A stretch of 59,665 nucleotides of DNA, filler included, from Jimgerdemannia flammicorona (lineage: Eukaryota): NCBI GenBank assembly GCA_003990765.1. It is 3 parts of 3 records of this genome, joined end to end, with 100 filler letters (N's around TTAATTAATTAA, not from the genome) between each part and the next. Parts side by side here need not be neighbours in the genome. Positions count along the whole stretch, not along the records: positions 19,924 to 39,744 come from RBNJ01001844.1; 2 more parts are not named here. One strand, 5' to 3'. Positions 3,729 through 41,236 of this stretch are shown piece by piece; position 1 is the first letter of the stretch; each line of letters starts with the position of its first letter. A program made the position numbers and the translations under genes. The notes below the pieces were generated by a model, which did no database searches, was not told the DNA's origin, and worked only from the letters and a program-made list of their open reading frames with translations.

Positions 3729-3758
3729 AATGAAATACAATTTGTTATCAGTTGATCT

Positions 3759-5784: not shown

Positions 5785-5863
5785 ATTGTTAGTCTCTTTT
5801 CTCCAAAAACGATGTTGTAAGTACCTTCCAAAGGTTGTGTAACCTGAATGGTACTGGAGAAAG

Positions 5864-8829: not shown

Positions 8830-9293
8830 ATTGATCAAGATATTGGTCTATTACTTTCTATATGAGATTTTTAAAGTAATGTTGATTTTTAAAGAAATGA
8901 TATATTTTATCTAAGATAAGAAATTAATTATTGATATAGCTATTTTTGAAAATTAAAGATTAGTATTGATGAGGTTCTTTATAAATAAAGTTATTAGTTT
9001 TCTATATATGTAATTTAGAAATTTATAAAATTTAAATAATAATTAAACTTATAGTATATTTAACTCAAAAATAGCCAACTTATTTTTGAATCTGATTTAT
9101 TTTTGAAACTCAATTTAATATTCAACTTATAATCTAACTTAAAACTTAATTTAATCTTAAAATTATCTTATATATATTTTTTAAAAAGTATATATTAAGA
9201 TATTAATTATTCTAACTTAATATATAAATATATGATATCTATCAATATTATACTTATATTTATATCATCAATTATTATATTATATATATATAT

Positions 9294-10826
9294 TGTCATG
9301 TAGTGGTTGCTGAGTCCTTCAAATATATCAGATTCTCTTCAAGGTATATCTCTTAGACTAACTTAAGTTTGTTATAAGTAAGTTCTTATTAGAGTGCCTT
9401 CCTAAAGTCTTATAGTTCTCAAACTTCTTATCTTTAACTATCTTGTTATCTCTTAGATTGCTTGCAAGGAAGTGTGTATATTACACTAAGTAGACTGACT
9501 TTATTTCAGAAGAAATAAGAGGAGTATTTATACAAAATATAATTCAATGGTTACTAAGATATAAAGCTAAATATAAATTCCAATAACTAAAACTACTAAG
9601 TTCTAGGGTCAGTACTGATAGTTGTACAGGTTCAGGATGCTGGTATAATTCAGTATTATATCAGAATACCAGTGCTGGTATTATTTAGTGTTATATCAAA
9701 ATACTGATACAGGAACAATTCTGTGTCACCTCAGAATACTGGTGCTGGTATTATCCAGTGTAACAAGAGACTTAGAACAGAATGTTCAAGACCATGGGGG
9801 CTTTATCCTTGTCATCAGAGATCAGGATATCTTTAAAGGAGATAAAGTCTATAAATATTTCGTTAAGATTATGTAGGTTGCATGAGATGACATCATTGCT
9901 AATGACATTATCATATTCAGCAGCGACAGGAACAAGGAGATCTGGAGCTCTCTAGTCTATGAGATTCTCTTCCACAAAATAGGGGACAAATGTGGGGTCT
10001 TGGGGAGGTCTAACCTAGATGCTTAGGCCTTGGAATACTGAGATCAATCCTTGCAGGAATTGGTCTGGGTTGTCTTGGAGGATGGGGTACCAGAAGTCTT
10101 CTACTTCATCACTATTGAGGGTGATAGTAGACTGGGCTTCTGTAGCCACCCTGGCTTCTAGTGCATTGATATGGTGGGATGATAGGTCTCTGAAGTCTGA
10201 GACTCTGACATACTCCAAGTTAGAGATCGACTATGGCACATGCCTGAAGATCTGATGGATCTTCTTAGCTATTCTTGTCTCGCATATATCTATGGGAGTG
10301 GCATCTTGTAGCTCTTGAGAGCTGGCCTGTGGGAACTCCCAGCAGAGGAGGTTTTCTATTTTATACTCCTGCTATATTTAGAGGTATTCAGTGACAATGG
10401 TGATCCTTGTTTCCATTTCATAGTAGTAGAGGATATAATGATAAGAGTCACCAGTACTCAGGTTGATACTAGGAGTCCTTCTTGAGTAGGTCCTCATAGC
10501 TCTTCTGATGTCTTGGAATATATTTTCTTTGACTGAGGTGCCTTGGTAGTTCCTTGACCTTGAGGTTTGGCAGGCAGCAGGCATTTCATTTATAGTAAGT
10601 CTTTGAGCTATTTTGGAATTGGTAGGTCTTGTTGGTTGCTGCTACTGTAGTTCCTTGATCCTTCTTTTATATTCCTCAAGATACTCATACTGAGGTCACA
10701 ATGACTTACAGTTGGTCATCATTGCTTATCTAATATGCCATATGATCTTCTTGTGCTCCAATCTGGTGGCTTGTAAGGAAAGGCTGTCTCCTATACTGAT
10801 GTCATCATTCTGGGGTCACCATTATA
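9294..10826 (-). repeat. Family A 3' LTR
   Basis: Direct repeat of 16129-17628; polypurine tract (AGGAGGAAGA on the minus strand) abuts it. Confidence 0.9.
9772..10584 (-). pseudogene. LTR-encoded ~270-aa ORF of unknown function (family A)
   Basis: Fragments 10378-10584 and 10015-10218 are in one frame. Same ORF occurs at 16574-17386, 18840-19667 and 41386-42221, with stops often at different positions. Confidence 0.75.
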
Positions 10827-16128: not shown

Positions 16129-17628
16129 TGTCATATAGTGGTCACTGAGTCCTTCAAATATACCAGATTCTCTTCAAGGTATATCTCTTAGACTAACTCA
16201 AGTTTGTTATAAGCAAGTTCTTATTAGAGTGCCTTCCTAAGGTCTTATAGTCCTCAAACTTCTTATCTTTAACTATCTTGTTATCTCTTAGATTGCTTGC
16301 AAGAAAGTATATGTATTGTACTGGGTAGACTGACTTTATTTCAGAGGAAATAAGAGAGGTATTTATACAAAATATAATTCAATAGTTGCTAAGATATAAA
16401 GCTAAATATAAATTCCAATAACTAAAACTACTAAGTTCCAGGGTCAGTACTGATAGTTGTACAGGTTCAGGATACTGGTATAATTTAGTGTCACATCAGA
16501 ATACCAGTTCTGGTATTATTTAGTGTTATATCAAAATATCAGTGCTGGAACAATTCTATATTATCTCAAGGACTTAGAGCAGAATATTCAAGACCATAGG
16601 AGCTTCATCCTCATCATCAGAGGTTAGGATATCTTCAAAGGAGATGAGGTCTGTAAATATTTTGTCAAGATCATATAGGTCGCATGGGATGACATCATCA
16701 CTGATGATATCATCACGTTCGGTAGCAGCAGAAACAAGAAGATCTAGAGCTCTCCAGTCTATGAGATTCTCTTCTACAAAATAGGAGACAAATGTGGGGT
16801 CTTGGAGAGGTCTAACCTGGATGCTTGGGCCTTGGAATACTGAGATCAATCCTTGTAGGAATTGGTCTGGGTTGTCTTGGAGGATGGAGTGTTAGAAGTC
16901 TTCTACTTAATCACTATTGAGGGTGATAGTAGACTGGGCTTCTGTAGCCACCCTGGCTTCTAGTGCATTAATATGATGAGATAATAGATCTCTAAAGTCT
17001 GAGACTCTGACATACTCTAAGTTGGAGATCAACCATAGTACATACCTGAAGATCTGATAGATCTTCTTAGCTGTTCTTGTCTTATGTATATTCATGAGAG
17101 TGGCATCTTGTAGCTCTTGAGGGCTGGCCTGTGGAAACTCCTGGCAGAGGAGGCTTCCTATTTCATACTTCTGCCACATTTGGAGGCATTCAGTAGTAAT
17201 AGTGATCCTTGTTTTTATTTTATAGCTATAGAGGATATAATAATAAGGGTCACTAGTACCCAGGTTGACACTAGAAGTTCTTCTTGAGTGGGTCCTCATA
17301 GCTCTTCTGATGTCTTGGAACATCCTTTCTTTGACTGAGATACCTTGGTGATTTCTTGACCTTGAGGTTTGGTGGGCAGTAGGCATTTCATTTGTAGTAA
17401 GTCTTTGAGCTATTTTGGGATTGGTGGGTCTTGTTGGTTGCTACTACTGTAATTCCTTAATCCTTCTTTTATATTTCTCAAGATACTCATACTGGGGTCA
17501 CAATGACTCACAGTTGGTCATCATTGCTCATCTCATATATCATATGATCTTCTTGTGCTCTGATCTGGTGGCTTGCAAGAAAAGGCTGTCTCCTGTACTG
17601 ATGTCATTATTCTGGGGTCACTGTTATA
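16129..17628 (-). repeat. Family A 5' LTR (contains ORF 16574-17386)
   Basis: Direct repeat of 9294-10826; followed by the PBS. Confidence 0.9.
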
Positions 17629-18586: not shown

Positions 18587-19823
18587 TGTAATAGTGATCT
18601 CAGAATAATGATATCAGCATAGGAGATAGTCTTTCCTTATAAGCCACCAGATCAGAACACAGGAAGATTATATGACATAACTTATCTGGGCTACAAGATG
18701 AGCAATGATGACCAACTATAAGTTATTGTGACCATAAGACAGATATCTCAAGAAATATAAAAAAAGGATCAAGAAACTACAGTAGCAGCAATCTAAATAA
18801 AGCTCACAGAAATAGTTCTAAAGACTTACTACAAATAAAATATCTGCTGCTTACTAAACCTCAAGGTCTAGGAATCACCAAGGCTCCTCAGTCCAGGATA
18901 GAATATTCTAAGACATCAGAAGAGCCATGGAAATCTGTATAAGAAGGACTCCTAGCCTCAACCTGGGTACTGGTGACTCCTATCATTATATTCTCTACTA
19001 CTGTAAAATGGAAACAAGGATCACTATTACTACTGAATGCCTCTGGGTATGGCAGGAGTATGAAATAGGAAACCTTCTCTACTGGGAATTCCTTCAGACC
19101 AATTACCAAGAAATATAAGATGCCATCTCCATAGATATATGTAAAATAAAGATAGCTAAGAAGGTTCATCAAGTCTTTAGACATACACTATGGTCAATCC
19201 CCAACTTGGAGTACACTAGAATCTCAGACTTCAAGGAACTGTCAGCCTGCTATACTAATATACTAGAGGCCATAGTGGCCACAGAAACCCAGTCTACTAT
19301 CACCCTCAATAGTGATGAGGTAGAAAAGTTCTGGAATTCTATCCTTGAGGACAATTCTGATCAGTTCCTACAAGGATTGATCTCAGCATTTCAGAGCCCC
19401 AGCATCCAGATTAGACCTCTCCAAGACCCCACATTTGTTTCTTATTTTATAGAAGAGAATGTTATAGATTGGAAAGCCCCAGACCTCCTTGTTCTCTCTG
19501 CTGCCAAATGTGATGACATCATCAGTGATGACATCATCCTGTACAACATATGCAAAGTATACAAAATGTATGATATATGTGATGAGATAGACAAAATGTT
19601 CATAGATCTCATCTCCTTCAGTAGTGATGAGAATAAAGCCCCCATGGTTCTGAACTTTCTACTTTAAGTTCTTGGTAATACCAGATTCTACCAGCATTCT
19701 TTTCTTATATAACTATTATTCTTCTGGCATTCTGATCTTGTATAACTCAGAAATTCTTCTAGTATTCTTTTCCTATACTATCAAAATTCTACTGATATCC
19801 TGAACTTGTATAATTGTTTTTTT
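18587..19823 (+). mobile_element. Family A-related LTR (diverged), cut by the assembly gap; ORF remnant 18840-19667
   Basis: Starts TGTAATAGTGA; encodes the same LTR protein (18927-19118, 19206-19667). Confidence 0.85.
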
Positions 19824-19923
19824 NNNNNNNNNNNNNNNNNNNNNNNNNNNNNNNNNNNNNNNNNNNNTTAATTAATTAANNNNNNNNNNNNNNNNNNNNN
19901 NNNNNNNNNNNNNNNNNNNNNNN
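19824..19923. other. Artificial contig linker
   Basis: N-run / TTAATTAATTAA (stops in all six frames) / N-run, 100 bp. Confidence 0.97.
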
Positions 19924-21421
19924 TAGTAAGCCATTCAGGCAGGGCATCGAATAAATGGTCTGCTCTTGTACCATTTCGTGCTTCATCATTGGCAATGTAT
20001 CCTAGGCCAACAGTGTTCAGGAGTGACTCGAGTTTTGTACAGAAGGTTTCAAATTCTTCTTTGCCATATACATCAAATTTGAGGTTGCGGAGTTTTACTC
20101 GAGATTCGGCAATCATGGTTTCGCTGCGATATTGAGCAATCATGAGTTGTTTGAGTCCAGGGCCTGCAGGATGGGCTCCATATCCTGGGGCATTGTTTGC
20201 TGCATTCTGGGCAACTACTGCAGGTCAGGTATCCCATGTGAGGGGTTTTTCAGGAAGGGTTCACCACCATTCTTCGGCAGGTCCTCGAAAGAATGTAACT
20301 ACTCGGCAGACATAGGCTGTAGTGGTAGCAAAGAGTTGTTCCAGGGTGTGGTCTTGATTGTTTGTCAGAACGCAGTCAGCAACTTGTTCATTGGTCCATT
20401 GATTGGCTTCAAAGTTGGTGTCAACTATACTAACGAAGCTTTGGACTTCTTGTGCAGTACCATTGAAGGTAGGTAGGCTCAGATTTTTGGTAGGTTGGGT
20501 CTGTTCGGCTAAGGCAGTAATGGTTGCTGTCATTATAGCTACTTGGGCTGTGAGATCCAGAATCTGTTGGTTTGCCATGTTGTTGACTGGAGGCGGTTGG
20601 ACTGTGGGTAGTGGTGTTACTGGTACTACTTGAGGTACTGGTGCAGAGTGTGATGGGGTTCTTTGGGTCTGTGTAAGTTGCTGGAGTAGTAGTTGTGGAT
20701 CTGGAGTGAGGGCTTGATAGATTGCTGTTTGTTGCTGTATAGGTGTATTCTGTCCTGATGGATGTGTGTCTCCTTCAGTGGTATATCCGGGATCGAATTC
20801 AGTGAGATACTCCTCCTCTTCTTCGGTTTGGTCCCCGTGTAATTGGGTTTGCTCGGTGTCAAAGTAGACAGAATCAGTTGTATATCTGATTTCAGACGGA
20901 CTTAATTCAAAGTCAAGTTCAGGTTCGGTATTGGTTTCAGATTCAGGTAGGGTTGTAGCAGGGCCTGCTTCAGGTTTGGGGTCAGGTAGTTGATGAAGGG
21001 TTTCTCTTGCTTCTTCCTTAAGAATATAGCGGGCCTTGCTATTCTGGAATCGGTAGTATAATGTGGTCTTGGTCCTGGTGCGGTGAAAGTCGGTAGAGTT
21101 GAGCCACTTGGCTACAGAGGCTTGGGCTTCGTGAGGAACTAAGGCTAGAAAGACTGCTGCTGGTTGTCCTAGATCGCTTGGATTTGTGGAGCTAACAAAA
21201 CTCTTGTTGAGAAGAGTAAAGAAGGCTTCAATAAGACCTTCTTCATCTTGACTTGCTGGGTGTAGTGCAAGGAGTTCGGTGAATAGGGTTTTGCCTATTT
21301 GCTGGTTTAATCGGAGTACTTCTTTCTTTGAATGAAGTTTGTCCCACTTGTTGCAGGTGTGGAGGTCAAATTGTCCTTGTACATCAGGTTCAATTCTCTC
21401 CAGATTGTCAGATGGTTCGGA
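19924..21421 (-). pseudogene. Gag, N-terminal part (family B)
   Basis: LPTFNG...FFRGPAEEWW retrotransposon gag signature; frame open from 21421 to a TGA at 20261, then continues in 19924-20143. Confidence 0.8.
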
Positions 21422-22216
21422 TTAATTCCAGTTCAGAGGTTGGGCTTTATACCAACTTGTAGGAATTCACAGAAGGGTTTGTAGCAGGGTGAGGAAGCGT
21501 CTTGAAGCAGAATTGGATTGTAAACCACTGCTACCAAGTTGTAAGAGGGTTACTTTTTAGGGTAACTGTTACATAGTTCTGGAAGGATTTTCTGGAAGTT
21601 CTGGATATTCTGGAAGACTGTTTTCTTATGGTCAAGATCAATTTTGTATGGAGTACATCCTCTACGCTTATTGATATCAAGATTGGGTTGACGTCTCAAC
21701 CAAAGTCCTTTTCCAGACTAGTTCTGGATGTTCAGGATTTCTGTATTTCAGGAAGTTCAAGAAACTAAGACCAGCTTAGTTGAATTGGCATATTGCTGCA
21801 GATAATACCCAATTAGGAAATTTCGTGACGGAGTTAGGAGTAGGACCTAATAGGGAGCAGATTTACTTAAGAGTGGTTTGTGGGTTATGGAATAGGTTTA
21901 TTTGCTATTCATGATATTGCTATACTAGGAGTATTTGTGTGAAGGGGTATTGTGGGGAAGTGCTCAGGAGTTGTGTTCGAATTGTTCCAGTCTGAGATTC
22001 TGAGGTCTGGGGGAGGGGGTATTTATACTAGTGAGGGGCTATCTGGACTATGCTGAATATGGATGTAGCACTAAGTGCCTTGCTGAGTCGGAATGCAGTC
22101 ATATAGTACAAGTGTGATCTGACATATCAAGAGATCGTTTGACTGCTGAGTCAGTTCACAGTCACGTCATATAAGGCTAATCTATCTATACTATGACTGC
22201 TAGACTATTTATAGGT

Positions 22217-23314
22217 TTAGGCACTATCTGGGTAGTCCTCAATGACATCACTATTGATTGCATCATCTCTGATGAAGTAGTCGTCTAGGAATAATGGTTC
22301 GCGGATTACTTCTCCTTGTTGGCTGAGGTAGTAATATATTGGGACTTCATCTCTGTCCCACAGGATAGCATCATCTGTTTCGTATGCTGGATAAGATATT
22401 GGTGGGTGAAGGATGGGTGTACTGTCTTCGCTTTCATCGGATTCGCTATCTGTGTACCTTCTATAGGTTACAGCACTATGAGTTGTGGGGTTATAGTATG
22501 CTGGCAGCTGTGGTTCATGTTGCTCGTACTCGGGTGGTGGAGTGGTTGGTTCGATCTCGAGGGTTGTCTGAAGGTACAGGTTGTGTTCTCCAGTCTCTTC
22601 ATTATAATTGAAGTAATCGGGGGTGAACGCGGGTTGGTATTCATGCCAGTGGTCATTGTCCCAATAAGTCTCGTATGTGGTTATGAACTGTTGCAAGTTC
22701 ATCGGCAAGTTTGGCGGGGTGATCAGGGTTGGCAGAGATCCTTGGCTTGAGGTCATGTCAGCATCAGAGGGATCATTGTCTTCTGCTTCATCTTCGTCGA
22801 AGTGGATTATATTGTAGATATCCTTCATAGCGTATCCAACTTGAGGCATTTGTAGGATATGGTCATCAGGGTGCGGGAAGGTTCTGTCTGTGGTCTGGAC
22901 GTATTCGAGGTACTTGTGGTTGATTTCTTGTATCATGTCATCGATTTGGCTATAGGACAGAGTAGCAACCATTTCGCTGGTAGTAACTCGGAGGCGGGGA
23001 ATAAAGGTGTTGTACTCATAGAAGAGTTCTCGATGTTTGCAGGCGATGAGCTTCTGGTGTTGAGACATCTGGGTAATGTCTGTATCATGGTGGTGTTCGA
23101 CCATGTCTTCCAAGAGGCGGCCGATCTGGTAGTAGCTTGATATTTGTCCGATCCGGTGGGCCTCGTTAAGCATGTTCAGGGTGTTCCATCGAGCTTCCAC
23201 GAAGTAGAGAGGTGCCAGGCTATGGATATTCATAAGGGGCAGAGGGGGTGTGGCTCGGTTGACAATGGTATTCCAAATGTCAGCATGAATGCAGTTGTAG
23301 ATTTCAGTGGTCAT
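22217..23314 (-). CDS. Intact 365-aa protein of unknown function encoded within the family B LTR
   Basis: Uninterrupted ATG-initiated ORF on the element sense strand, entirely inside the LTR and upstream of the TATA-like box; acidic, Pro-rich C-terminal half. Confidence 0.8.
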   Translation of the reverse strand: MTTEIYNCIHADIWNTIVNRATPPLPLMNIHSLAPLYFVEARWNTLNMLNEAHRIGQISSYYQIGRLLEDMVEHHHDTDITQMSQHQKLIACKHRELFYEYNTFIPRLRVTTSEMVATLSYSQIDDMIQEINHKYLEYVQTTDRTFPHPDDHILQMPQVGYAMKDIYNIIHFDEDEAEDNDPSDADMTSSQGSLPTLITPPNLPMNLQQFITTYETYWDNDHWHEYQPAFTPDYFNYNEETGEHNLYLQTTLEIEPTTPPPEYEQHEPQLPAYYNPTTHSAVTYRRYTDSESDESEDSTPILHPPISYPAYETDDAILWDRDEVPIYYYLSQQGEVIREPLFLDDYFIRDDAINSDVIEDYPDSA

Positions 23315-23604
23315 GTTTGTGTGTTTGGAAGTTGTGGTTTGTTGTTTGTTTTGGTTCTCTGATTCGACGCATCTCAGTGCTCAGTATATATGCATTTGGT
23401 CCTGATTGGTAAGGTTCCGTTTGTGTAGATCTTGTGTTCCGTGACTTCATATTGACTCAGCTTTGTGCGCTGTGACTTCGGTTTGACTCAGCTTCGTAAT
23501 CAAGCAGGTGATTTCCAGATTTGTTCAGAGGTCGCGTGTGATTTCAGTGGCTTTGTTCAGAGGGTGATGTGCAATTTCGGTGGCTTGGAGGTTGTGTACT
23601 TACA

Positions 23605-26600
23605 CTGGGAGAGCAAGCTTTGTAGAGATGGTGAAGGGGAGACAGCAGGCATCAGGGCTAGAGGGCTGGCTGAGGAGGGGCAAGAAAACTGAGAAGATAG
23701 CAGTGTGTGGGAGAGTAGCCCTTGAAAGGGAGGGCAGTGGAGCTGGAAGAGTAGCAGCTGGGGGGAGTGTGACTACTGATGGTGATGGGACTGCCAATCT
23801 GGAAAAAAATCCAGATGTGATAGCTGATAGTGAGGCTGAGCAGCTGAGGCTTGGAAGACAAGGAGATTTGGCAGATGGTGTAATGGGCCTAGTGGTGGCC
23901 CCATTACTCAAAAAATCAATCTCAGTATTCATGGTTATACTATGCTTCCAGGGCTTAGCAGTGATGATAAAAATGGTACTGGGGCTCATTGCTAAGCAGG
24001 TGGCAGGAGCTGTATCAGTGAAGTTTTTGAAGGAACTGAAGGGAGTAGAGGTGGGTTTTGAGGAGGTGGAGTCACTGGAGGAGATGCTGAAGATTGGATT
24101 GGTAGTTAGAGAGATGTGTGTTCTGATGGCATGTTGTCTAAAGTGGAATCCCAGGGTGGTCCAACTGCTGGTGAAAGGAGTGCCTATAGTGATAGTAGTA
24201 GAGATGAGGAGGAGAGTTGAGGAAGTCATGGCAGAATATAGAGAGGTGGTGGATATCAGATTCAGAGTCTGGGAAGGGACCTCACTCAGGACTGGTGATG
24301 TGGATATAAGAATTTGGCTGGCTGAGAAGGAAGCTACTGGGAAGGCAAGGGACTGGCCTTCAGTAATAGTCTGGAGAGCGATCTTATACAAGATAACAAG
24401 AGTGAAGAGAAGTGAGAAGGAGGAGGAGGATTTATTGGAAGTGCTAGAAGAGTTGAGTGGTGCTGTAGAGAGGTGAGTGAAGGCTTGGAAGGCCTTTGTG
24501 GAGTCAACACACTTGGAGGTAGTGGATGGAAAGCGGATTCAAGTGGACAAGAAGTAGTGGGAAAGGGCTCAGAGACATAAGAGACAGAAGGAGCTGCTGG
24601 CTAAGCTAAAAAACAGACCACTGGAGGATGTGAGCAAGATGAAGGGCACAGGGGGGGCCAAAGCGAGTGTCTGGGCCAGTGAGGGGGGGGGAGAAGGCCA
24701 GGAAGGAGGCAGGGGAGGACAAGGTGAAGCCTGGTAATGACCCATATACTGATGGTATACTGGAGGTTTGGGAGGTGGACTGGGAGGACTCCCCTACTCC
24801 TATCCCTCTTATTAGGTGAGGTCTGGCTTCCTGAAACAGAATGGTGGAGGATGTGCCAATACAGAGAGCCCAGAGGGTACAATTCGGAGTTCCAGAGGTG
24901 ACATATGGGAGACAGGTGGTAGTGGCTGGAGAGGAGGAACTGGTGGATGTCTTGGACGTATGGAATGAGTCTGCAAGCACTGGAGCTGACACTACAATGC
25001 TGGATGGAGAGAGGCCAGTGACTCCAGGTGGGAAGGAGGTGGGGAACCTACTTTGGATATACCAGATGATGAATAACCTGGTAGTAGAAGAGTTGGAGGA
25101 GGTGGACTTATGAGTGATGAGTGATGAGCATTGGGCAAGGATACTGCAGGGGAATGGTATGATGAAGGCATTGAAGACAGAAATTCTTATGGTGTACTTG
25201 GAGGAGGAAGGGTATGAGATAGATAAGAAGAGGGAGGCAGAGATAGTGGTCATTGCTGGGGAGAGGGCTGAATACTGCTGGAACAAGCATCATGGATTGC
25301 AGCTCTGGCAGGAGGCATGCCTAGAATACTGAGAGGAGTTTGAGGAGAAGGCAGATGGAGAGATGAATGATCTGCTGGCTGGATTGGAGACTCAGAGGGC
25401 TGAAGAGGAGGAGGTGGCTGTGGAATATAATCTGGACATGGCACAGAAGGAGATGAATATAGAGCAGTAAAGATCGATTGATAACATAACATATTTCATT
25501 ATGAACAGTACAACTAATATTTTTTCTTTAAACATGAATGGGTTATGGGGCACAGCTAGATGTAGGAACATTTTTACTTGGATGAAGAAATTAGAGGCTG
25601 ATCTCTTCCTCTTGCAGGATGTCAGGTATGAGTAGTGCTCCCAACGAATTGAATCAAGGATCCAATTCGATTCAATTTGAATCGAATCAAAGGTCCAATT
25701 CGATTCGAAGTTTGATTCGAACCTTAATTTTCAAAATGTAATAACTCGACGAAAACTCATCCAAATTTAACATATTTTAGCTTGTTAGATTCACCGTATT
25801 AATGTGATTATAACAAGCTAAAGTACGTTAGATTTGGATGAGTTTACGCTGAGTTATTGCATTTTGAAAATTAGGGTTCGAATCAGACCCTCAATTTGAT
25901 TTGACTTTTGATTTGATTCAAATTGATTCAAATTGAAAAATCCCCAATTCGATTCAACTCATTTAACCCTCAATTTGATTTGATTCGAATTGATTCGACT
26001 TGTTTGGGAGTACTAGATATGAGGATGATACTGATAAGAGAGAATGGACAAAGGAATGGGGAGGGATGGTGATTTAGAAGGGCAAGGTTGGGATTCTGGT
26101 TCAGAAAGGCAGAGGGGAGATACAGGATGTGAGGAGCTGGGGGGAGAGACTGGTCTGGGGTGAGTGGATTCATGCAGGCTGGGAACCAGTTACAGTGGGT
26201 TCCTGTTACTGCTCTGCTGTATGGGGTGAGTATATAGATTGGGTGAAAGGTCTACAAGAGAGTGGGATTCTTGCAGAGGCTGGAGTGGATATGCTTGGGG
26301 GAGATTTCAATATGGTTTGGGACCTACTGGTGGATAGAACAGATAGAGAATGGGGTGCTGAGAGCAAGAGTAGAGGGCTGGCAGCATGGGAGGAAGTAGA
26401 AAGACTAAGTGTGCTGGTAGATGCTGGTAGGGAATACTGGGGAGATAAGAGGGTCTATATACATTGGGCAGGGGGCCTGGGGACAAGGATCAACTGGATT
26501 CTGATGGCCAGTTGCTGGGGCCTAGATGTTTGGAAGTCACTGGAGGTGGAATGGTGTCCATGGTCAGATCACAGAGGGCTTTTGGGACAGGGGTACTTTG

Positions 26601-29592
26601 GGGGAAGTGGGGATGGGTCTGGATATTGATGTCTAAATTCCTCCTTGTTGAATGACAAGACCCAGTGGAATGAGTGGGCTAAAGACATTCAGCTGAGGGT
26701 GGAGAACTGGCAGCAGGAAGGTGCATCAGTTGGGGTTTGGTAAATGAGGATAAAGGAGAGGGCCAAGATTTACTAGAGTGAGGCTAGCAAGGAGGCAGGA
26801 AAGCAGAGAAGGTGAAGAGTGCATTGGGCTTCTACTAGATTGGCTAGACTCCTAGAGGAGGAGACAAGGCTGATAATGTTGGAGGGAGAAGAAGGTTGAA
26901 GATTAATGAGGGTGAAGATAGAGGTTGGAGAACTACAACAACTGTGGGAAGAGGAAGAGGCAAGGGTACAAAGCTTGGCAATGCAGCTTTGTTAGCAGGA
27001 TCTGGAGGAAGGGGAGAGGCCTTCCAAGTTTCTTATGAGGGCCCTTAGGGTAAGAAGGGTATAGCAATGATGGGAAGGGGTACTTGACTCAGATGGTATA
27101 CTAGTGCATGGTATACAGGACATTCTTAGATTATTGAAGGAGTAATGGAGTGGATTGTGGAGTGAGGAGAAGGGTGGGACAGATGCTGCTGCCATTGATC
27201 AAACATTAGAGGATTGGCATCCACCATAAGTAGAGGGGCTAGGTGACCTAGTGATGCCTGTACAGGAGGATGAGATCTACCAGATTCTTGCTGTGACAAT
27301 ACCAGGTATGGCACCTGGGGAGGATGGTCTGCCCTGGGACTTCTGGAAGCAAATGGTTGGAGTCCCAGGTATGATAAGAGAGATGACAGTATTGTGTGAC
27401 TTTATCCTACAGATAGGGAGATGGGTGGGGGAGCAGAATTTTGGACTGGTGACACTGCTTTATAAGAACAAAGAAAGGTATGAGGATTGGAAGAACTGGC
27501 AACTGATAATGTTGCTAGATATGGATAGAAAGTTGGTGACTAAGGTGGTGGTTGCAAGACTACAGAAGGTGGCCCAGCAAGTCATGGATATTGAGCAGAG
27601 GGGATTTGTGGGTAATCGGCTCATTAGAGATAGCATAGTCTAGGTATATGGAGTTATTGAAGGGGCAAGGACCTGTGGACTAGATGGGTGACTAGTCTTC
27701 TTGGACCAAGAGAAGGCTTATAACTGAGTGCGATGAGTCTGGCTGGTGAAAGTATTGGATAGAATGGGGGTTCCATGTCAATTTCAGTCAGCAATGATCA
27801 GCCTACTAGAAGGAAGTAGGGCTGCCCTCATGTATAATAGACATAGAGGGGTAGCATTCCCCTTAGGTAGGGGGGTGCCCCAGGGGGACCCACTGTCTCT
27901 CATTTTGTATACTCTTTTCCTGGAACCCCTAATAGACAAAATTAGGTAGAGAATAGTGGGGCTCTCTATCTTTGACATTGGATGGAAAGTTGGGGCCTTT
28001 GCAGATGATATGGTGGTTGGTTTGGGATCAATCACTGATATCGAGGAGCTAAAGAAGACAGTGGAGTGGTATGAGGAGAACTCTGGGGCTAAGCTGAATT
28101 GGCACAAGTATGAAACAATGATACTAGGTAATGGCCTGGTGAGAGAGGAGGTTATAGGAACAATCGTCCCTACCAGTGAGACAGTGTGGTACTTGGGCAT
28201 CTATTTGTTAGTCTATGGGTCAGTTCTGCCCAGGCTTTGGTGGGAACAGAGAATTGGAATCTGGGAGGAGGCTCTGCAGGGTTAGGGGGGAAGATACTTT
28301 TCTCTGGTGAGGCAGGTCTCAATTTTGAATGTCCACTGGCTGCCAAAGCTGTGGTATCTGGCTTATCATCTGGACTTCCCAGTCTGGGTGGTGAAGAGAT
28401 TGATGAAGTTGGCAAGGGATGGATTTGGGCTGGCAGGCAGAGTCAGATTGGTTGGGAGACCTTGTCCTTACCAGTGGCGAGAGGTGGTCTTGGGCTGGTT
28501 GACTTTCCAAAATAGTTATACTGCTTGAGAGCATGGTGGCTAAAGAGGGCAGTGGAGTTGAGAGGAGATGGTTGGGTTCCCCTGCTGCAGAAGATCTGGG
28601 AGAGGTGGTCATCACTAAGAGGTTTGACTGGTGATCTCCTCTCATTGGTTGGACTTTGGAACACTGATATAAAGGATTTTGGTGGGGGATAGTGGAGGGG
28701 GTGTACTACATTGGAATTCATTAGCAGGGGAATGAAGGGAAGGTGGCCTGAGATCTGATAATGTGGAGATAGGATCATATACTGCTTGGTGGCACTTCTT
28801 TAATTGAGTTTGACATTGGTGATGGAATGGAATACCAAAGGAGACTGGGTCAAGATCTGTGGCCTAGCAGTTGGCAAGGAGTTGGAATTGGCAAAGAGTG
28901 GAACTGGTATAGTGTTTGGACCTGGAGTGCCATAGTGAGAAAGTAGATGCCACCAAAGTACTGGGTAGTCTGGTGGTATATGCTGTAGAGGAATATAATG
29001 CTCAACTTCTGCTCAGGGCACCTTATAATAGGGGGTTGCTTTGACTGTAAGGAGTGTCATAATGTAGGACAGAAAGGGGGTTATATACAGATGCCAGAAC
29101 ATTGGCTAGGAGAGTGTGAGGTATTGGGGGACTTTTGGCAGACTATTGGAGATCACTTGGGTGTAAGGTGTAGGGGAGATGAAGTACAGGGGAGGTGGGA
29201 GGACTTAAGGGATCAATTGGTAGGGGGGAAGGAAAGAAGTAGCTTATCTTAGGCTGGACTTTGGCTATTTGAGTGGGACTGGCTAGTCACTGGCTATTTG
29301 TTTTTGAGGATGGGAGGAGACAGGGCTTGGGAGACTGATTGTTGTGATGGCATAGTCTTATGGAAGACATCTTGACTGGCTGGTGGCTTGGTTGGGGGCT
29401 GCAGGGTGGTTGGAGGCACCACTTGATAGAGAAAATTTATGAACAGAGTGAGGGGTGAGTTGGAGTAGTTGGTAAGAAGGTGATCTTTATCTGTAAGAAG
29501 GTGGGGAGGGGCTCCCCTATGGGGATTGGGTAGTGGGTGGTGATAATATATACTTATTCATAGACTGGTAATAAAGATAGAGTCTAAGTGAC

Positions 29593-29641
<49 letters not shown>
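23605..29641 (+). mobile_element. LINE copy L3 (ORF1 to 25470, ORF2 25501-29483, poly(A) tail), inserted into hAT copy 1
   Basis: Colinear with L1; GRGVPQGDPLS, AFADD; AATAAA at 29570; poly(A) 29596-29641. Confidence 0.93.
25633..26015. mobile_element. hAT-type MITE
   Basis: TAGTGCTCCC...GGGAGTACTA TIRs; 8-bp TSD ggtatgag/gatatgag; homologous to 7657-8080. Confidence 0.92.
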
Positions 29642-29644
<3 letters not shown>

Positions 29645-30392
29645 ATATACAAGATTCTGTACCCCTACCAGAACTTTAAAAGTACCATCAAAGAGCAAAC
29701 TGCGTATGAGCATGATATGGCCTGTGTGGCAATAGCAGCTATGATCTGGGGTTCTTTGAGCAGATTGGTGGAGCATATGGCAGGTCAGCTTGGTGGTGAT
29801 CTCAGTGTAGCTATACATACATTCTTAGTGCAATTTAGCATACTATATGAGGTAAAGAGCTCTGCTTTTTTGGAGTACTACAGCCCAGAGGAATTCTGTG
29901 GCCCAGGGGGTTTCTGTGGCCTGGGGGGTTTCTGCCTCTCCATATGCAAAAAGGACTGACCAGTTGCCATCCGTTTTAACAGATTTCCAAGCCAGGGCTC
30001 CTAGGGCTAGACTAAGAGCAGGCATCCACCAGCACAGCCTAGCAGTATGAGGTCCTGGTCCAAGGGTTCACCTAACCATACACTTATATTATATCAGGAT
30101 ATGTTGGGCACAATATTTTTCTGCCTACACACATAGACAATAATGTCACTCTGGTAATATTTTACATCTCAGAAAGGAAGGGCCCAATCTGGAAGGATAG
30201 CAGAAGAGTCTGGTATGACCTTATCTACAGTTTCAGGGTCCCATTTGCAGCCAACATGGCCATCCTCTTCCAACCACACAACTACCATGGCACTATCACC
30301 TTCAAGAGAGCTTGGATACAACAGTTGTCACACTCACAATGGATGATAGGCTCATCAAGGCCTGGGACTGGTGGGTGGAGCAGTTTTTGTAA
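29642..30392 (+). pseudogene. Putative 2OG-Fe(II) dioxygenase (TET/JBP-like), last two exons, hAT copy 1
   Basis: Phase-0 GT-AG intron 29852-29982 with CTGAC branch site; H-I-D at 30130-30138 and ILFQPHNY-H-GT with His at 30286. Confidence 0.6.
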
Positions 30393-31450
30393 GGGTTAGG
30401 CAATCTTTCACAAGAGATAGGCAGTCTTTTGTGAGAGTTAGGCAGTCATTTTGTGTGAGTTGGGCAGTTATTTTATATAGGTTGGGCAGTCTTATGTGGG
30501 GGGTTGGGCCAGGTACTTCTTCTGTAGTACTAACTTAGCCTTTATGCAAGGCCCTACTGACCCCTTAGCTCTGCTCTGCAGTGCCACTGGTGTAGTGCTG
30601 CAGCACAGGGCCAGGGTGCCCATGGGACTCGAACCAGTGACAGGGTCTGAACCTGTGGTGGACTTTGATCACCAGAAGTACTCTCCAACCACCGGAAATG
30701 CCCTCTGACCACCAGAAGTACCCTCTGACCACCAGAAGCACCCTCCAACTGCCAGAAGTACTCTCTGCCCCAGACTCCTTGGTGGCTTGGGGCTGCCCCT
30801 ATGCTACTAGCAGAGGGCTACAAATTTTGCATACTCTCTCCACCTGCCTTGCCTGTCCTGGACACTTGCAGCTTAGGACTGCTCCTTGCTGCTGATGGAG
30901 GGCTGCAAATTTTATGTGCTCCCTCACTGACCCCATGCCTACCAACCCCACTGACTGACCCTGCCCACTGACCTGGGCACTGACAGCTTGGGGCTACCTC
31001 TTACTACTGGTAGAGGGCCATAAATTTTGCATGCTCCCTCCACCTGCCCTACCCATCCCAGACACTTGCAGCTTGGGGCTGCTCCTTTCTGCCAGTGGAG
31101 GGCTGCAAATTTTGCATGCTCCCTCTACTGACTCTACACCCACCAACTCTGCCGACCAACCCCACCCACTGACCTGGATGCTGACAGCTTGGGGCAACTC
31201 CTTACTGTTGGCAGAGGGCTGCAAGTTTTGCGTACTCTCTCTGCCAACTCCCCCAACTGAGACACTTGCAGCTTGGGGCTGCATCTTGCTGCTGGCAGAG
31301 GGCCATAAATTTTACATGCTCCCTCTACTGACCCACCCACTGACCTGGGCACTGATAGCTTGGGGCTGCCCCTTGCTACTGGTGGAGGACTGCAAATATT
31401 GCGTACTCCCTCTGTCACTGTCACCAACTCTGCTGACTGCTGGCCACTTG
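30385..31450. repeat. Internal repeat block of hAT copy 1: two ~20-bp minisatellites and ~7 palindromic units
   Basis: GTTGGGCAGTC-type and CCAGAAGTACCCTC-type tandem units, then repeated AGAGGGCTGCAAATTTTGCATGCTCCCTCT. Confidence 0.8.
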
Positions 31451-31568
31451 GGCTGCAGACTCCAGGCCAAGTCCTTAGGGTTTTTTATCTTTTTATTATT
31501 TTTGAAAGGTATTAAATATTCCACAAGGCCAACCAACTTATTCGCAAACCCCCAGGACCTGCCAAATT

Positions 31569-34160
31569 TTAGCGGCCTGAGCCCCACTAAGACTTTAGAC
31601 ACATACATGCCCAGATTGTCTCAGCATTCAGTGCACATCTCTTTGGGGTAATGAGGTCCACCCTATCTGAGAACACCTGCTCGATAGGAGCACTGGAGGC
31701 AGGAATTGCCAGGTAGTCTCAAGCTATACCACACAGGCTGGGGAAGTCTGTTTGATACAGCTGTATACCCTGGTGAGTAGAGCAGTGGTTAGATTGGTGA
31801 GTTAAATTAGCCCAACACCCACCTGACAATGCCCACCTGACAACCCACCTTCCACTAGTTGAGTACCTCCACATCCTCCAGTAGGATCACACAGTTGCTG
31901 GTAAGATAAATGGTAAGTTCATCTATTGATGGCAGCTCTTCCACTGATGGCTCCCTCTTCCTCTTTCTGCTGAAGTAAATGTGAGACAGGAGGGATCCCT
32001 CAGCATATTTGTCCAGACTTCAGCCGAAACCTTGTGGTGGTGTATAGTTTTTCTGGTATACTTCGATTACAGCCTGCTTGATTCTCTCAATGAAGTACTG
32101 CTCCCAGCTCTGATCTTTATGGTATTGTAGCTTTAAGTGTGGGTCCAGCACTGTTCAAAAAAGAGAAGAGAGTGAGTTTTTGTAGGGGTTTCTCTGTTTT
32201 GGAAGGGGCAACAGCTATACACCAACATTGACATACTTATACTGATTGAGTATATAGCAGTATCTGTTTAGGAGTAGTACTTTCTGAGCTTACTAAGAGC
32301 AACCTCCATAGCATCTCTCTGATCTGGGCTTAACTGTAAATTACCATAACCCTCCAGCCTGTCCTCAAGCTTGTCCTCTAGCTGGTCAATTAGAAGGTTG
32401 TATACTGGTATTGTCAAGCTTATTGTCAGGGTCATTTGTTTGACTATATCTTTTATACAATTGTCAAAACACTGGTAGTTATATGTAGTGAGGTGTTGCA
32501 TTATACAGAGGCAGACAAAATGAGTGTGGAGCCAGAGCAATCACTACTTACTTCCAAAACTCTGACAATATTTCTAAGTATGTCCCACTCACTTTTACCT
32601 AGAGCCTCGGCCTGTATTTCCTTGTCAGCAGCCACTGTTGAATCTATTGGCTTTTTTTTGTTTTTTTTTTTTAAAATAAATCTTCAATCATCTGAAATAA
32701 GTTACTTCAGCTGAATGAAGAAAAAAAGAATGCATACCACAGCAAACTCCAGTGTACACTGGATCATTGCAAATGTTGAGTTCCAATGCATACAGACATC
32801 CAATATAAGCTCTTTCAGGACTAAACTGATTGCCCTACACTGTGTAGCAAATTTGTCTCATCATTGTGGAGACAATCAGACTGATATAACCAGGTTGCAC
32901 AGCTTGGAAATTATACTCAGGGCCCCACCTCTCTTGGATGTTTTGTCTATATGCATAAGATAGTTCTGAACAGCAAGGTTCAGTACATGGGCCTGGCATC
33001 ATACATAGTAGCTTTCTGTACCAAAGGCTATATTTTTCTGTTTGAGGCTGGCCACTAAAACTTTAAAAAATATTGAGTTGTTTGTGGCATTATCTGTCAT
33101 AATGGCCAAAATCTGTACTTGAAATATTTGGTTGATGAATTTATGTGAAAATAAATAACCAATAAAATCTGGTTTATTTTAGGACTTTTCTCAAAATGCC
33201 GACCTGATGGCAAGTCCCCCTTTTTTACCTTGGTTGTGATTCCAAGCTCCCAGATACAACTAATAAAAGCATCTGCAATATTGTCTCCAGAATGAGGGCC
33301 AGCAAGTTTGACAAAGTCAAGGGTGAGAGATTTAAGCTGCCAATCAAGATCAATCCAATGACTGGTAATGCCCAGAAATGAAATTACATTAGGGGATGTC
33401 CATGTATCGATTGTAAATGAAATTTTGCCTGCTGAATTCTGCTTATTGAATGTGAGGTTAAATTGGTGAGCTCTTTTTATATAATTTAGCTTGCAAAGGT
33501 CATGATGCTGCCCTTATTTTACCTGAAGTATCTGGTAGAGATTGTTGTGCTTCTTCCTATAGACCTCCAGGGTATCTTTGCGAATAGTATTGGCACTTGG
33601 CAAATATAAATCATGCTTGAGGAGGCCAAAGATGCTATGCAATTGATCACTCTCGATGGTTGTGAATGGCTGGTCTGTGTACACAATCCAGTGAATGAGC
33701 CGATTTCGAAATTCTGCTAAAGAGTATGGCTAAATATTTTTAATTAAATGGTGTTGTTGGTACAGAAATGGTCAGGCAATCAGATAAACATACCTACCAC
33801 AGCTTGGATGTTGATTTTATTTATCTCTGTGTTCTTTTTTATTTTGTCAGAGTGCTTGTCTTTTATATATATATTGATTCATGTTTGAAGTCATACCCCT
33901 AAGCATTTTGAACTTCTGGCTGGTGTAGTTTATAGAGGTGGATGAAACAATATCATGTGTGTGTCAAAACAAACAAAAAGTGTCAATAGGTATATCTTAA
34001 TTTTTTACCTACAATAATTATAAATAACATCATCTCCTATCTTAGTATAATGTTACCAGATTTCAGAGCAAGGATTGTATAGAAGGTGTGGAACTATCAG
34101 GGATGATTGACTTAAAGCATCATTGGTACTGTGAACTATTGAAGACTGATCTGTTGACAT
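31569..34160 (-). pseudogene. hAT transposase, intron-containing (copy 1)
   Basis: BED-like SEIWxHY; DQPFTTIES; SFTIDTWTS; GPHSGDNIA; TDNATNN; CQAHVLNL; WNST; LDP; DYLAIPASSAPIEQVFS. Confidence 0.92.
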
Positions 34161-34259
34161 GTATATTTGTGTGTTTGCATGTGCATATGTATACATGTGT
34201 GTGTATTGTATATGCATGTATATAGTATATTGTATTGTAGATGTGTCCAGTATATGAGT

Positions 34260-34546
34260 CATGTGGAGGATTTGGATTAGAGGATTCAGTTGAAGGATTT
34301 GGATGAGGATTTGGATTGAAGGATTTAAATTAGAGGATTTGAATTGGAGGATTTGAATTGGAGGATTCAGATTGAGTGATTCAGATTGAGTGATTCAGAT
34401 TAGAGTGGTTCAGATGGGTAATTCAGATAGAGCAATTTAGATGGGACAATTCAGATTAATCCAAGTTGATTCGGATGGCTTCAGATTTGAGATTTGGATC
34501 AAACCATCATGTGATGAATTGAATCTGGATTTGATTTGAATTGACT
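34260..34546. repeat. hAT subterminal repeats
   Basis: Tandem GATTCAGATTGA / GGATTTGAATT units next to the TIR; equivalent array at 57700-57955. Confidence 0.8.
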
Positions 34547-34649
34547 CATTCAGAGTACTATAAATTACTCAAGATAATATATAAATATACTACTCTGGAG
34601 AGTTGAAGATATCATATACAAACTACCTGAGTGAAGAATGTAGCCTACA

Positions 34650-36600
34650 CCTTTCTCTGGTAACATTTGGATTATACAAATCTCTGGCATACTTAAGGTA
34701 TTATTTTTGGAGAATAGGTAAGCAATATGACAACTGATGAGCATTCTAAGTATATGCTAGATAGGGTAGCTCTAGTGTATTCAACTGGCAGCACATGAGG
34801 AGAAGTCATGGCTTGGAGGGAAGTATACAAGGCTTATTGGCTAGAGGATGTGAAAGGAGAGGAGGTAGTATTGAGAGATAGAGATCTGGAAAAATGAGCT
34901 TTGTGGACAAGATAAAGGAGGGACATCTGATGACTGGATTGGAGAGCTGGCTGAGAAAGAACAAGGAGATGGCAAGAGCTCTGATGGAGTAGCTCATAGT
35001 AGTGAGAGCAGTAGGGCTGGGAGAGTAGTGGCTAGAGAGAGTGGGACTACTAATAGTAAGAAGACTGCTAATCTAAAAAAAAAATCCAGATATAATAGTT
35101 GATAGTGAATCTGAATAGAGAGTGGACACAAGGCCCAGAGATCTGATAGATAGTGTAATGGGCCTAGTGGTAGTACTATTACTCAAGAAATCAAGATCAG
35201 AATTTGCTATTACATTATATTTCTGAGGCTTAGTAATAATAGTAAAGATAATTCTGGAACTTCTGGCTCAAGAAGTGAAGATAGCAGTATTAGTGAAGTT
35301 TTTGAAGGATCTGAAAGGGGTGGAGATGGGCTTTGAGAAAGAAGATATACTATTGAAAGTGATAGAGAAGAGAGTGGTGGTAGGAGAGAGTGGCAATCTC
35401 TATAACCCAGTGCTTATACTAGAATTCCTGAGTAGTACAGCTGACAGTATTGAATATTCCTATAATATTGAAGAAGATGACAAAAGGATTGATTGTGGAG
35501 GCCATTAAGGAGTATAGAGATATTATAGATATTGGGTTTCAGATCTGAGAAGGCACAGAGTTCAGGATAGGAGATATGGATATGTATCAGGATATGACTA
35601 GCAGATAAGGAAAATATAGGAAAAGTGAGAGACTGACTAGCAGTCCTCAAATGGGGACCTGTGGAGTATAAGGTCTTGAGAGTAAAAGGAATATCAGAGG
35701 AAGAAAAGGACTTGCTAGAGGCATTGGAGGATCTGGTTGAAGCTGTGGAGAGGTGGAAATTGGCCTGAAAGGAGTTTGAGGCCAAGATAGTAGTAGAGAT
35801 CATAAATAGCAAGAGAGTGTGGTTAGATTAGACAGCCTGGAAGAGAGCATAGAGGAGGTACATTCAGAAGGATCTGTTGGCTAAGTTGGGAGAGAGGGGC
35901 AGCTGGAGAGATCACTACTAAAGAAGCTAGATTAAGGGCAAGTGCCTGGGCAGGAGAGAAGAGAGTGGTATCAGTAGAGACCTCAGATGGGGAGAAGGCT
36001 CAGGGCTGAGTATCATTGTAGAGGATGTAGAGATGGCAGAAGGGGAGTACTCTCAGTATAGAGTACTAGGTGGGGCTGAAGGAGATGATAAACTGTAGAA
36101 TATGCTGAAGGAGAATTGAGATAAGTCAGTAAGAAGGAATACAGAGGGTGGGCAGATAGAAGGGGGGAAGAGAGTGGCCCAGAGAGTAGTAGAGGTAGCA
36201 GATAAGGAGAAATAGCTATAGAAAACACTTGAGAATATGGTAGCTAAGAAGCTGGAGGAGAGGACTTTTGGATACTAAGTGAGAGATACTGAAGTGAAAT
36301 TCTGCAGAGCAAGAAGGTGCTATAAAAACTCCAAGATGAGATAATGGTGACTTTGTTGAAGGCTGAGACATATCAAGTAGATGATGACAGAGAGGCAGTA
36401 CTTCTGGTAATTATAAATGACAGGGCTGTATATATGTGGGCCTAAACAAAGGGCTGATAAAGTGGCAGATAATGTGTGAGGAGTACCAGATAGAGATAGA
36501 AGCTGTGGATAGTATGGATTATCAGAAGATCTTGAAGGTATTAGAGACTTAGCAGAGAGAGATAGATGAGCTTAAGACAGAGAGGAATCTAGATAACACA
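34650..36600 (+). mobile_element. LINE copy L4 (5' end + ORF1, heavily decayed), interrupted by L5
   Basis: Shared 5' terminus CTTTCTCTGGTAACATT; ORF1 homology closest to the L6 subfamily. Confidence 0.8.
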
Positions 36601-39215: not shown

Positions 39216-39573
39216 TAGTGCTTCCAATGAATCAAATCAAATCGAATTTGGCCCAAACTTGATTCAATTCAATTGAATCAAGGGTCCAATTTGATTCGAT
39301 TCAAATTGAATCAAAGGTCCAATTCGATTTGAAGTTCAATTTGAACCTTAATTTTCAAAATGTAATAGCTCGACGAAAACTCATCTAAATTTAATGTATT
39401 TTAGCTTGTTAGATTCACCATATTAATGTGATTCTAACAAGCTAAAGTACGTTAGATTTGGATGAGTTTACGCTGAGTTATTGCATTTTGAAAATTAGGG
39501 TTCGAATCAGACCCTCAATTTGATTCGACTTTTGATTTGATTCGAATTGATTTGAATTAAAAAATACCCAATC
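39216..39573. mobile_element. hAT-type MITE, one end missing
   Basis: Begins TAGTGCTTCC; homologous to the other MITEs; interrupted by the short poly(A)-family element. Confidence 0.85.
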
Positions 39574-39575
39574 AG

Positions 39576-39744
39576 CTCCTTTCTCCGCTACCTTACCAGT
39601 CACAAGGTTTGGTAGGCAACCTTCCGAGTCCCCTTTCCCCTATTATTACCCCCTCTACCTCGGGTTGGTTTGCTGTGCCTGCAGGGGCATGGTGGGAGGA
39701 GGGCAATGGTGATGAGTTGCCCCTTTATCGGTGTCGGATTGGTG
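39576..39744 (+). mobile_element. 5' fragment of the short poly(A)-tailed element
   Basis: Matches the starts at 57961 and 58468; cut by the gap. Confidence 0.7.
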
Positions 39745-39844
39745 NNNNNNNNNNNNNNNNNNNNNNNNNNNNNNNNNNNNNNNNNNNNTTAATTAATTAA
39801 NNNNNNNNNNNNNNNNNNNNNNNNNNNNNNNNNNNNNNNNNNNN
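39745..39844. other. Artificial contig linker
   Basis: Same N/TTAATTAATTAA/N spacer. Confidence 0.97.
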
Positions 39845-41156: not shown

Positions 41157-41236
41157 GTTGATAGTAGCTTTTCACCAAAAACTTCACAGAAAGTGTTGTC
41201 CAAATCTTGTGTCACCCGAATGTTACCGGTGAAAGG
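39845..41236 (-). mobile_element. LINE copy L6 (CpG-retaining, probably young), inserted into a family A LTR
   Basis: Shared 5' terminus; uninterrupted ORF1; abundant CpG. Confidence 0.88.

Follow-up and report, generated by a model that had tools for sequence, protein, structure and literature searches.

Non-retroviral retrotransposons are customarily regarded as having non-coding long terminal repeats (LTRs), and it is only between these repeats that annotation pipelines seek extra open reading frames (ORFs). Can such an LTR itself carry a gene? This question is raised by a 59,665-nucleotide (nt) stretch of DNA from Jimgerdemannia flammicorona (assembly GCA_003990765.1), hereafter called the window, which consists of three records joined with filler (positions 19,924-39,744 are RBNJ01001844.1; the gaps at 19824-19923 and 39745-39844 carry a TTAATTAATTAA linker). 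On its minus strand lies a 2,065 base-pair (bp) LTR (21540-23604, TG...CA) of a Ty3/gypsy chromovirus that we call F1, and a first-pass annotation had placed an intact 365-codon ORF wholly within this 2.07-kb LTR, on the sense strand and upstream of a TATAAATA box. Our analysis indicates that this ORF is a genuine third gene of the element, residing inside both LTRs and inside solo LTRs, and that purifying selection acted on the encoded protein during the period in which the family was transposing.

The ORF and the LTR that contains it

The accessory ORF occupies positions 22217-23314 of the minus strand (LTR nt 291-1388), begins with an ATG at 23314 and has no internal stops. Its integrity and its containment within the LTR were therefore described correctly, and the LTR boundaries that enclose it are the same in other copies. 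The TATAAATA box at 22020-22027 indeed follows the ORF, starting approximately 190 nt past its end. The term 'sense strand' holds for the strand of the element but not for the plus strand of the window, because element sense corresponds to the window minus strand. A longer N-terminus was considered and rejected, as no excess of third-position changes is seen in the 47 open codons that precede the ATG.

Directly after the LTR come a primer-binding-site (PBS)-like motif, TGGTAGCAG, and then a gag-like frame, and for this reason we assign the LTR as the 5' copy. The PBS-like TGGTAGCAGTGG (21525-21536, minus strand) is presumably of the initiator-Met tRNA type; ARAGORN identified no tRNA in the window. 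The internal region starts with an N-terminally extended gag-like frame (19924-21500, minus strand) that is interrupted by the first assembly gap, where the interior of the element is lost. On its other side the LTR abuts the target-site duplication (TSD) CCCAG (23605-23609, minus strand), which lies within a long interspersed nuclear element (LINE). The partner 3' LTR of this insertion is locus L017 (G000:C10861), which has the same TSD, and the LINE broken by the insertion resumes across the flanks of the two LTRs. These paired LTRs differ at 87 of 2,065 sites (4.2%), and 86 of the 87 differences are transitions, which together with a CpG observed/expected ratio of 0.11 in the window is consistent with repeat methylation.

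The identity of the host element is evident from other copies. The order dUTPase-reverse transcriptase (RT)-integrase is found at three loci (L076, L095 and L098), with RT-RNase H ahead of integrase. The integrase combines an SH3 domain of the Tf2 type with a chromodomain (at L007, PF24626 with E 3e-18 and PF00385 with E 3.2e-17), and the solved structure nearest to the F1 RT is that of Ty3 RT (E 4.5e-56). F1 is thus a Ty3/gypsy chromovirus with a dUTPase. The N-terminal extension of its gag-like frame (window 20579-21430, minus strand; L013:3384-4085) is long, in frame and itself constrained, and has no match in Pfam.

The ORF is not a chance occurrence, since 5,950 candidates are present genome-wide and all 112 that were scored align over virtually the full length at 90-100% identity. 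The 23 distinct full-length copies of the F1 LTR comprise 11 that are preceded by one and the same polypurine tract (PPT), nine that lie ahead of the PBS and three solo LTRs with a 5-bp TSD. The ORF is found in 5', 3' and solo LTRs, as expected from the earlier proposal of an accessory gene that is duplicated at every transposition and either expressed from the 3' LTR or retained in solo LTRs. When copies were picked by their non-coding DNA, only two of the 18 that were fully covered proved to be stop-free, whereas 16 carry stops, and so the open frame in the window is partly a matter of luck.

Comparison of copies, which the first-pass annotation had proposed in the form of dN/dS (the ratio of nonsynonymous to synonymous substitution rates), reveals purifying selection. 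For copies not chosen by protein score, the ratio of nonsynonymous to synonymous polymorphism (pN/pS) of the ORF is 0.31 (confidence interval, CI, 0.25-0.38; 20 copies) and 0.37 (25 copies). On the same scale, the end of the F1 integrase gives 0.38, the gag extension 0.47 and non-coding LTR frames 0.78-1.07. For loci selected through their non-coding DNA (with sufficient ORF coverage at 19 of 30), the in-frame ratio is 0.20-0.31, compared to 0.84-2.40 for the other four frames; the in-register antisense frame, at 0.28-0.39, exhibits the expected shadow of the ORF constraint. Setting aside codons touched by CpG yields 0.17-0.27, and the C-terminal part of the protein is constrained likewise (0.21 for residues 141-260 and 0.39 for residues 261-365). 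A first set of dN/dS values (0.16-0.24) was discarded, as its copies had been chosen by protein score and were biased low.

The timing of this selection can be read from two classes of variants. Those common to at least four copies are 66 synonymous versus 25 other, whereas three single insertions yielded, between their paired LTRs, 93 synonymous and 158 other differences, indicating that the protein is selected in transposing lineages and decays after insertion. This last ratio, 1.7:1, falls short of the 2.2-2.5:1 expected from site counts, and raw pN/pS values therefore overstate the constraint somewhat, but the contrast with the controls stands. The first-pass annotation had named two outcomes that would count against its reading, a frame unique to this copy and evolving neutrally, or LTR boundaries that exclude it. 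Neither is what we find: the ORF lies within the LTR, is multicopy and was maintained, while its family transposed, at a level like that of the element's own integrase.

Related domains in five gypsy lineages and a sister element without the gene

The encoded protein has two parts, a conserved helical domain (residues 1-140; 22895-23314, minus strand) and a 225-residue tail (22220-22894, minus strand) that is acidic, aromatic and proline-rich, with 48 D/E, 7 K/R, 30 F/W/Y and 24 P. A helical N-terminal domain followed by an acidic, proline-rich tail had been predicted beforehand, and both features are recovered, the first in two structural models and the second by counting residues. A profile of F1 together with a second family, F2, run on 329 kb of genome DNA, uncovered homologues of the domain in families F3, F4 and F5, as well as in a sixth, heavily decayed family (F6; L156, L165 and L166).

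The location of the gene differs among these families. In F2 the domain (16895-17344, minus strand, with further copies at 10093-10542 and 41730-42179 on the minus strand and at 18885-19331 on the plus strand) lies in an ORF of approximately 280 codons within a 1.5-kb LTR, and the F5 ORF is inside a 2.3-kb LTR. The F3 ORF is found directly past the integrase stop and before the PPT and a 469-bp LTR, and the F4 ORF likewise follows integrase and ends ahead of the PPT. Thus, the homologous ORFs are within LTRs in F1, F2 and F5, and between pol and PPT in F3 and F4. The first-pass annotation had not noticed these four further carriers of the domain.

Direct comparison of F1 with F2 is weak (BLASTP E 1.0; hhalign E 0.027; 33 of 2,000 shuffles), and their homology is secured by the addition of the further families. 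Specifically, in a leave-one-family-out test of all five families, the protein of the excluded family scored 17-63 bits, versus at most 11.2 bits for 1,000 shuffles; F1 itself scored 31.0 bits, with a best shuffle of 9.4. The underlying alignment was made jointly, which may help the held-out scores slightly. Each of the five beats all 1,000 shuffles, and on these alignments the N-terminal domain is shown to constitute one family across five gypsy lineages in this genome. All five families' ORFs are constrained, with pN/pS values of 0.38-0.61 for F2-F5 (from sets that include protein-selected copies), and the value for the F3 form, which is almost tail-less, is 0.38.

The F1 RT is 29-35% identical to the RTs of the other families, which are 36-63% identical among themselves. 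The RT tree groups F2 with F3 (97/96) and F4 with F5 (88/92) and places F1 far outside, whereas the ORF tree groups F2 with F5 (89/82) and F1 with F4 (94/85). These groupings suggest exchange between lineages, but the ORF-tree forks fall below firm support. We also observed that a dUTPase lies ahead of RT in all five families, chromoviral and non-chromoviral (L076:6480-6860; L006:468-1214; L197, L200 and L202). Insertions of one LTR into another are frequent among families, including S (the sister element described below) and F1 into F2, and F1 into F1 (L088, L013, L030 and L003).

Searches for named relatives were made at several levels. The full ORF protein matches no Pfam family at E <= 10, and 16 family members have no Pfam match under E 0.07; PF09039 (Mu DNA-binding) appears weakly, at E 0.09, in two of the 16. 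The best values in PHROGs (E 0.053) and NCBIfam (E 0.039) are scattered and never common to several families, a sequence-profile search of PDB reaches E 0.14 at best, and a DUF3102 profile has no candidates in the genome. Homologue searches matched one of 451, one of 6,979 and six of 389 candidates, all of which are environmental sequences that closely resemble F1, F2 or F5 and are unnamed or designated 'hypothetical protein'. An exhaustive search with the F1 domain as its only query returned three matches, including one (P0003) that was rejected as a spurious repeat protein. In all these searches, of which only that with the F1 domain was exhaustive, the family is seen only in the J. flammicorona genome and in short environmental contigs. 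None of 137 pattern matches in metagenome contigs was confirmed, tblastn against phage yielded no match (two weak alignments at E 8-10), and the ESM Atlas offers unnamed clusters (best 0.90 and 0.93) that serve as leads only. A similar motif may occur in common hypothetical proteins of arbuscular-mycorrhizal fungi.

Comparisons of structure lead to a similar picture. Two AlphaFold runs gave mean pLDDT (predicted local distance difference test) values of 63.6 and 45.7, and the domain is helical in both of these low-confidence models. With the first model, which alone was used in fold searches, Foldseek returned no matches at E <= 0.001 in BFVD or PDB, and the best VIA result (Z 7.0) is within noise and involves unrelated helical proteins. 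The homology and structure look-ups advocated in the first-pass annotation therefore supported its helices but produced no named family or fold. Examination of one protein from each of the five families revealed no membrane segment, with top 19-residue hydropathy values of 0.16-1.02 (0.86 for F1). L68 is the sole invariant residue of the family alignment and A91 is nearly so; mainly hydrophobic positions are kept, and there is no invariant polar or catalytic residue. The isoelectric point of the domain is 5.7-7.8, which is roughly neutral and not basic. Long acidic-aromatic tails are present in F1, F2 and F5, whereas the tail is short in F4 and almost absent from F3.

A sister element, S (50567-57324, plus strand), offers a natural comparison. 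Its internal DNA is approximately 89% identical to that of F1, with RT-RNase H-integrase deleted, and its 1.49-kb LTRs match those of F1 over ~53 bp at the start and ~740 bp at the end, but the ORF segment has been replaced. The replacement (50643-51277, plus strand) matches F5 at 70% identity over the end of integrase, the 3' untranslated region and the PPT/LTR junction, with a degenerate version of this junction forming its limit. Given that F5 is non-chromoviral, this match indicates that the unique 3' (U3) region of an F1-type chromovirus took in 3' DNA from a non-chromoviral gypsy element, and the captured region is where F3 and F4 carry the gene. The captured integrase frame evolves neutrally in S (pN/pS 1.20, CI 0.75-1.92, 8 copies). 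LTRs of the S type number 1,065 candidates genome-wide, and four of five S elements examined are without RT-integrase, although the fifth retains the integrase end. Amplification of these ORF-less LTRs, mostly on deleted elements, argues that the gene is dispensable in cis. Three S-type loci (L206, L207 and L208) share an extra deletion at approximately internal nt 3222-3694, leaving ~70 bp before the PPT, and represent an amplified non-autonomous subfamily.

The surroundings of F1 and S are themselves repetitive. Many decayed LINE-like copies occupy positions 1-8830, 23605-29602 and 34650-41230 of the window (with an RVT_1 match at 1366-1854), one of which received the F1 insertion. A repeat with internal tandem arrays is present in two copies (approximately 29640-34460 and 46460-57900), and S is inserted in the second.

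Inferred position in U3 and proposed expression, origin and function

We infer that the ORF sits in U3, because it is upstream of a TATAAAT...AATAAA module seen in the LTRs of five families. In F1 the TATAAATA box at 22020-22027 (minus strand; 53 of 53 copies) is the putative main promoter that marks the end of U3, and AATAAA at 21897-21902 (minus strand; 48 of 48 copies) is the likely polyadenylation signal in the repeat (R) region. TATAAAT is likewise followed by AATAAA in the LTRs of every one of the five families, even in F3 and F4, whose short LTRs are without an ORF. A second TATAAATA (22206-22213, minus strand; 50 of 63 copies) is found directly past the ORF stop codon, and thus downstream of the ORF. 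Motifs resembling TGATGTCATC, which we take to be of the cyclic-AMP response element (CRE) type, recur together with TGACTCA by the ORF end and ahead of the main TATA in several families (LTR ends of F1, F2 and S).

A separate candidate promoter precedes the ORF (23384-23490, minus strand). It comprises two TGAGTCA motifs, presumably of the AP-1 type, a CCAAT and a TATA-like ATATATAC located approximately 70 nt before the ATG, such that the signals span 70-176 nt ahead of the start codon. These motifs are conserved in 74-77 of 77-78 copies, and F2 likewise has a TATA-like box ahead of its LTR ORF. We lean slightly toward a model in which the gene would be transcribed from these signals at the 5' end of the LTR to the LTR's own AATAAA, so that any LTR, solo copies included, would be a complete expression unit by virtue of possessing both its own promoter and its own AATAAA. 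The alternative is a spliced RNA reaching into the 3' LTR, for which a conserved CAG at 23402-23404 is a candidate splice acceptor. Among contigs from one run guessed to be RNA, coverage peaks at 21646-22014, immediately past the main TATA, and is thin across the ORF, and those of a second run have more even coverage. Contigs of this kind cannot indicate level or start, and neither set was used as evidence; no canonical splice joint was listed.

With regard to origin, the arrangement in F3 and F4 suggests that the gene was at first a conventional ORF3, sited between pol and PPT. It would have entered the LTR when 3' internal DNA was absorbed into U3, an event of the type that S preserves, and would have passed from a non-chromoviral element to F1 by recombination during reverse transcription. 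We consider this three-part history probable.

Proposals for function are less secure. The first-pass annotation had suggested a regulator or silencing suppressor. Acidic, aromatic and proline-rich composition is typical of activation domains, and the tail may work as one, boosting transcription from the LTR or lifting silencing in a genome depleted of CpG, while the helical domain would dock on a host or element protein. We put at about even odds our preferred reading, in which the protein is soluble, has no enzymatic activity and acts in trans as a regulator that increases LTR output. Taken together, these ideas portray U3 as an exchangeable cargo slot into which an unnamed regulator family moved from ORF3, gained a promoter and crossed between chromoviral and non-chromoviral lineages, making every LTR, solo copies among them, a self-contained gene for a trans-acting activator or anti-silencing protein common to the dominant retrotransposons of one genome. 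In this full form the scenario is possible but doubtful.

Several observations temper these proposals. The domain tree is long-branched and its deep forks are without firm support, so that donor and direction are tentative. The DNA around the candidate promoter is nearly as conserved as the motifs themselves. Moreover, the F5 ORF begins no more than ~130 nt from the LTR end and has no TATA before it, which means that not every family has a private promoter. Both structural models are unreliable at the pLDDT values given above. Direct DNA binding is disfavored because the domain is not basic, and the family must have some role besides activation, because the F3 protein is nearly tail-less.

Some of the same facts would suit an accessory factor of the particle or integration complex, one with a post-transcriptional action and with Gag, integrase or a host restriction factor as its binding partner. 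The retroviral adaptors Vpr, Vpx and Vif provide the model for such a protein. The small soluble helical domain without a catalytic signature, its position directly past integrase in F3 and F4, the constraint on the tail-less F3 form and its portability among elements with very different LTRs all fit this idea. However, the long acidic-aromatic tails of F1, F2 and F5, and the short one of F4, do not, and passage between lineages whose RTs are only about one-third identical is hard to reconcile with a binder of the element's own proteins, though not with a host partner. We view this explanation as unlikely overall. Another notion is that the abundant LTRs make a self-limiting or competition factor that dampens transposition of their own or rival elements. 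Location in an LTR would scale gene dose with copy number and would survive in solo LTRs (three of the 23 full-length copies), and the gene is common to co-resident families. Yet the carrier families are very abundant, with thousands of candidates, and inserted copies decay, giving no sign of selection at the level of the host; copy-number control is accordingly improbable.

More improbable still is a cryptic nucleic-acid-binding or enzymatic domain, such as a divergent helix-turn-helix like that of DUF3102. The helix spacing and a Y-x-I-G-x-L ... A-x-K/R-x-x-x-x-F pattern resemble such domains, and the weak PF09039 scores point the same way, but these are countered by the otherwise empty Pfam searches, the lack of DUF3102 candidates in the genome, a net charge that is neutral to acidic and the lack of invariant polar residues. 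Finally, the ORF might be a functionless passenger, captured coding DNA in U3 whose open frame reflects nothing more than the youth of the family. The stops in 16 of 18 copies are what one would expect of a passenger, and S shows that U3 can hold functionless captured coding DNA. This view is, however, largely refuted, since a true passenger evolves neutrally in S, whereas the ORF is constrained to the degree of integrase and its family is conserved over five lineages. We give the passenger explanation almost no credence.

Comparison with known systems

Sag is a membrane superantigen, and it offers the closest positional parallel to the regulator that we favor for F1. In mouse mammary tumor virus (MMTV), the sag accessory gene lies mostly in U3, and one survey reports that 490 of 527 sag contigs are without other retroviral genes, that endogenous copies are under purifying selection (omega 0.289) and that there are several promoters, including one within U3 (PMC4667437). 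Like sag, the F1 ORF is under purifying selection and is kept in solo LTRs, and its putative place is in U3. Unlike MMTV, which is an enveloped vertebrate retrovirus, F1 is a gypsy element without env, and its protein is soluble. None of the searches that we ran found similarity to Sag, and membership in that family was rejected, given the lack of a membrane anchor (hydropathy <=0.86) and of any Pfam family at E <= 10.

Other retroviral accessory genes provide looser parallels. Foamy virus tas/bel2 and lentiviral nef are 3' genes that run into U3, and Tas, a transactivator, possesses an acidic activation region, its gene having an internal promoter. These genes only overlap U3, however, and are not copied whole into the 5' LTR as the F1 ORF is, and we found no sequence link between them and the F1 protein.

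Among retrotransposons, a review of additional ORFs (aORFs) places them in the internal region and notes that those in sense orientation frequently resemble env and carry membrane segments (PMC7264820). The F1 gene resembles the aORF-3S class as an extra sense ORF of undescribed function that is conserved over most copies, and F3 and F4 share the exact layout, but the genes of F1, F2 and F5 are wholly within the LTR and have no membrane segment. An env-like sense aORF was rejected for F1 on both grounds, as its ORF is in the LTR rather than between pol and the 3' LTR and no transmembrane segment is present in the five families. In bdelloid rotifers, ORF3 types are common to distant retroelement lineages, several of which have a dUTPase (PMC5408684). 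Those ORF3s are recognizable as enzymes or membrane proteins (GDSL, DEDDy or env-like), and the accessible part of that report describes no LTR placement for them (PMC5408684); the F1 protein matches no Pfam family.

Fungal elements are instructive with respect to the LTR itself. The LTR subfamilies of crapaud, a chromodomain element of Podospora, vary mainly in the half of U3 before the TATA and include recombinants, although, unlike F1 and S, they are not described as holding a protein-coding gene or captured pol DNA in the portion of the account at hand (PMC10787394). Fungal chromoviruses may combine a chromodomain integrase with a dUTPase, including one at the Pol N-terminus; the available excerpt of that work mentions an additional ORF of unknown function, its place unstated, but describes no LTR-borne gene (PMC2864245). 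In rice, the ORF0 of Retrosat2, whose LTRs are long, is reported to precede gag-pol (PMC3485330).

In the open-licence literature we found no description of a gene wholly inside a non-retroviral LTR. We classify the F1 gene as a probable U3 accessory gene of an unnamed family, of the additional-ORF or sag-like kind, with no counterpart found outside retroviruses in the literature searched. This unnamed family occupies the LTRs of three abundant element families and the ordinary 3' position in two others, and its protein is a candidate factor behind the expansion of retrotransposons in a CpG-depleted genome. S records the capture of foreign DNA by an LTR of the same type, and together the LTR and ORF3 placements and this capture outline a testable route by which U3 genes such as sag and nef might originate.
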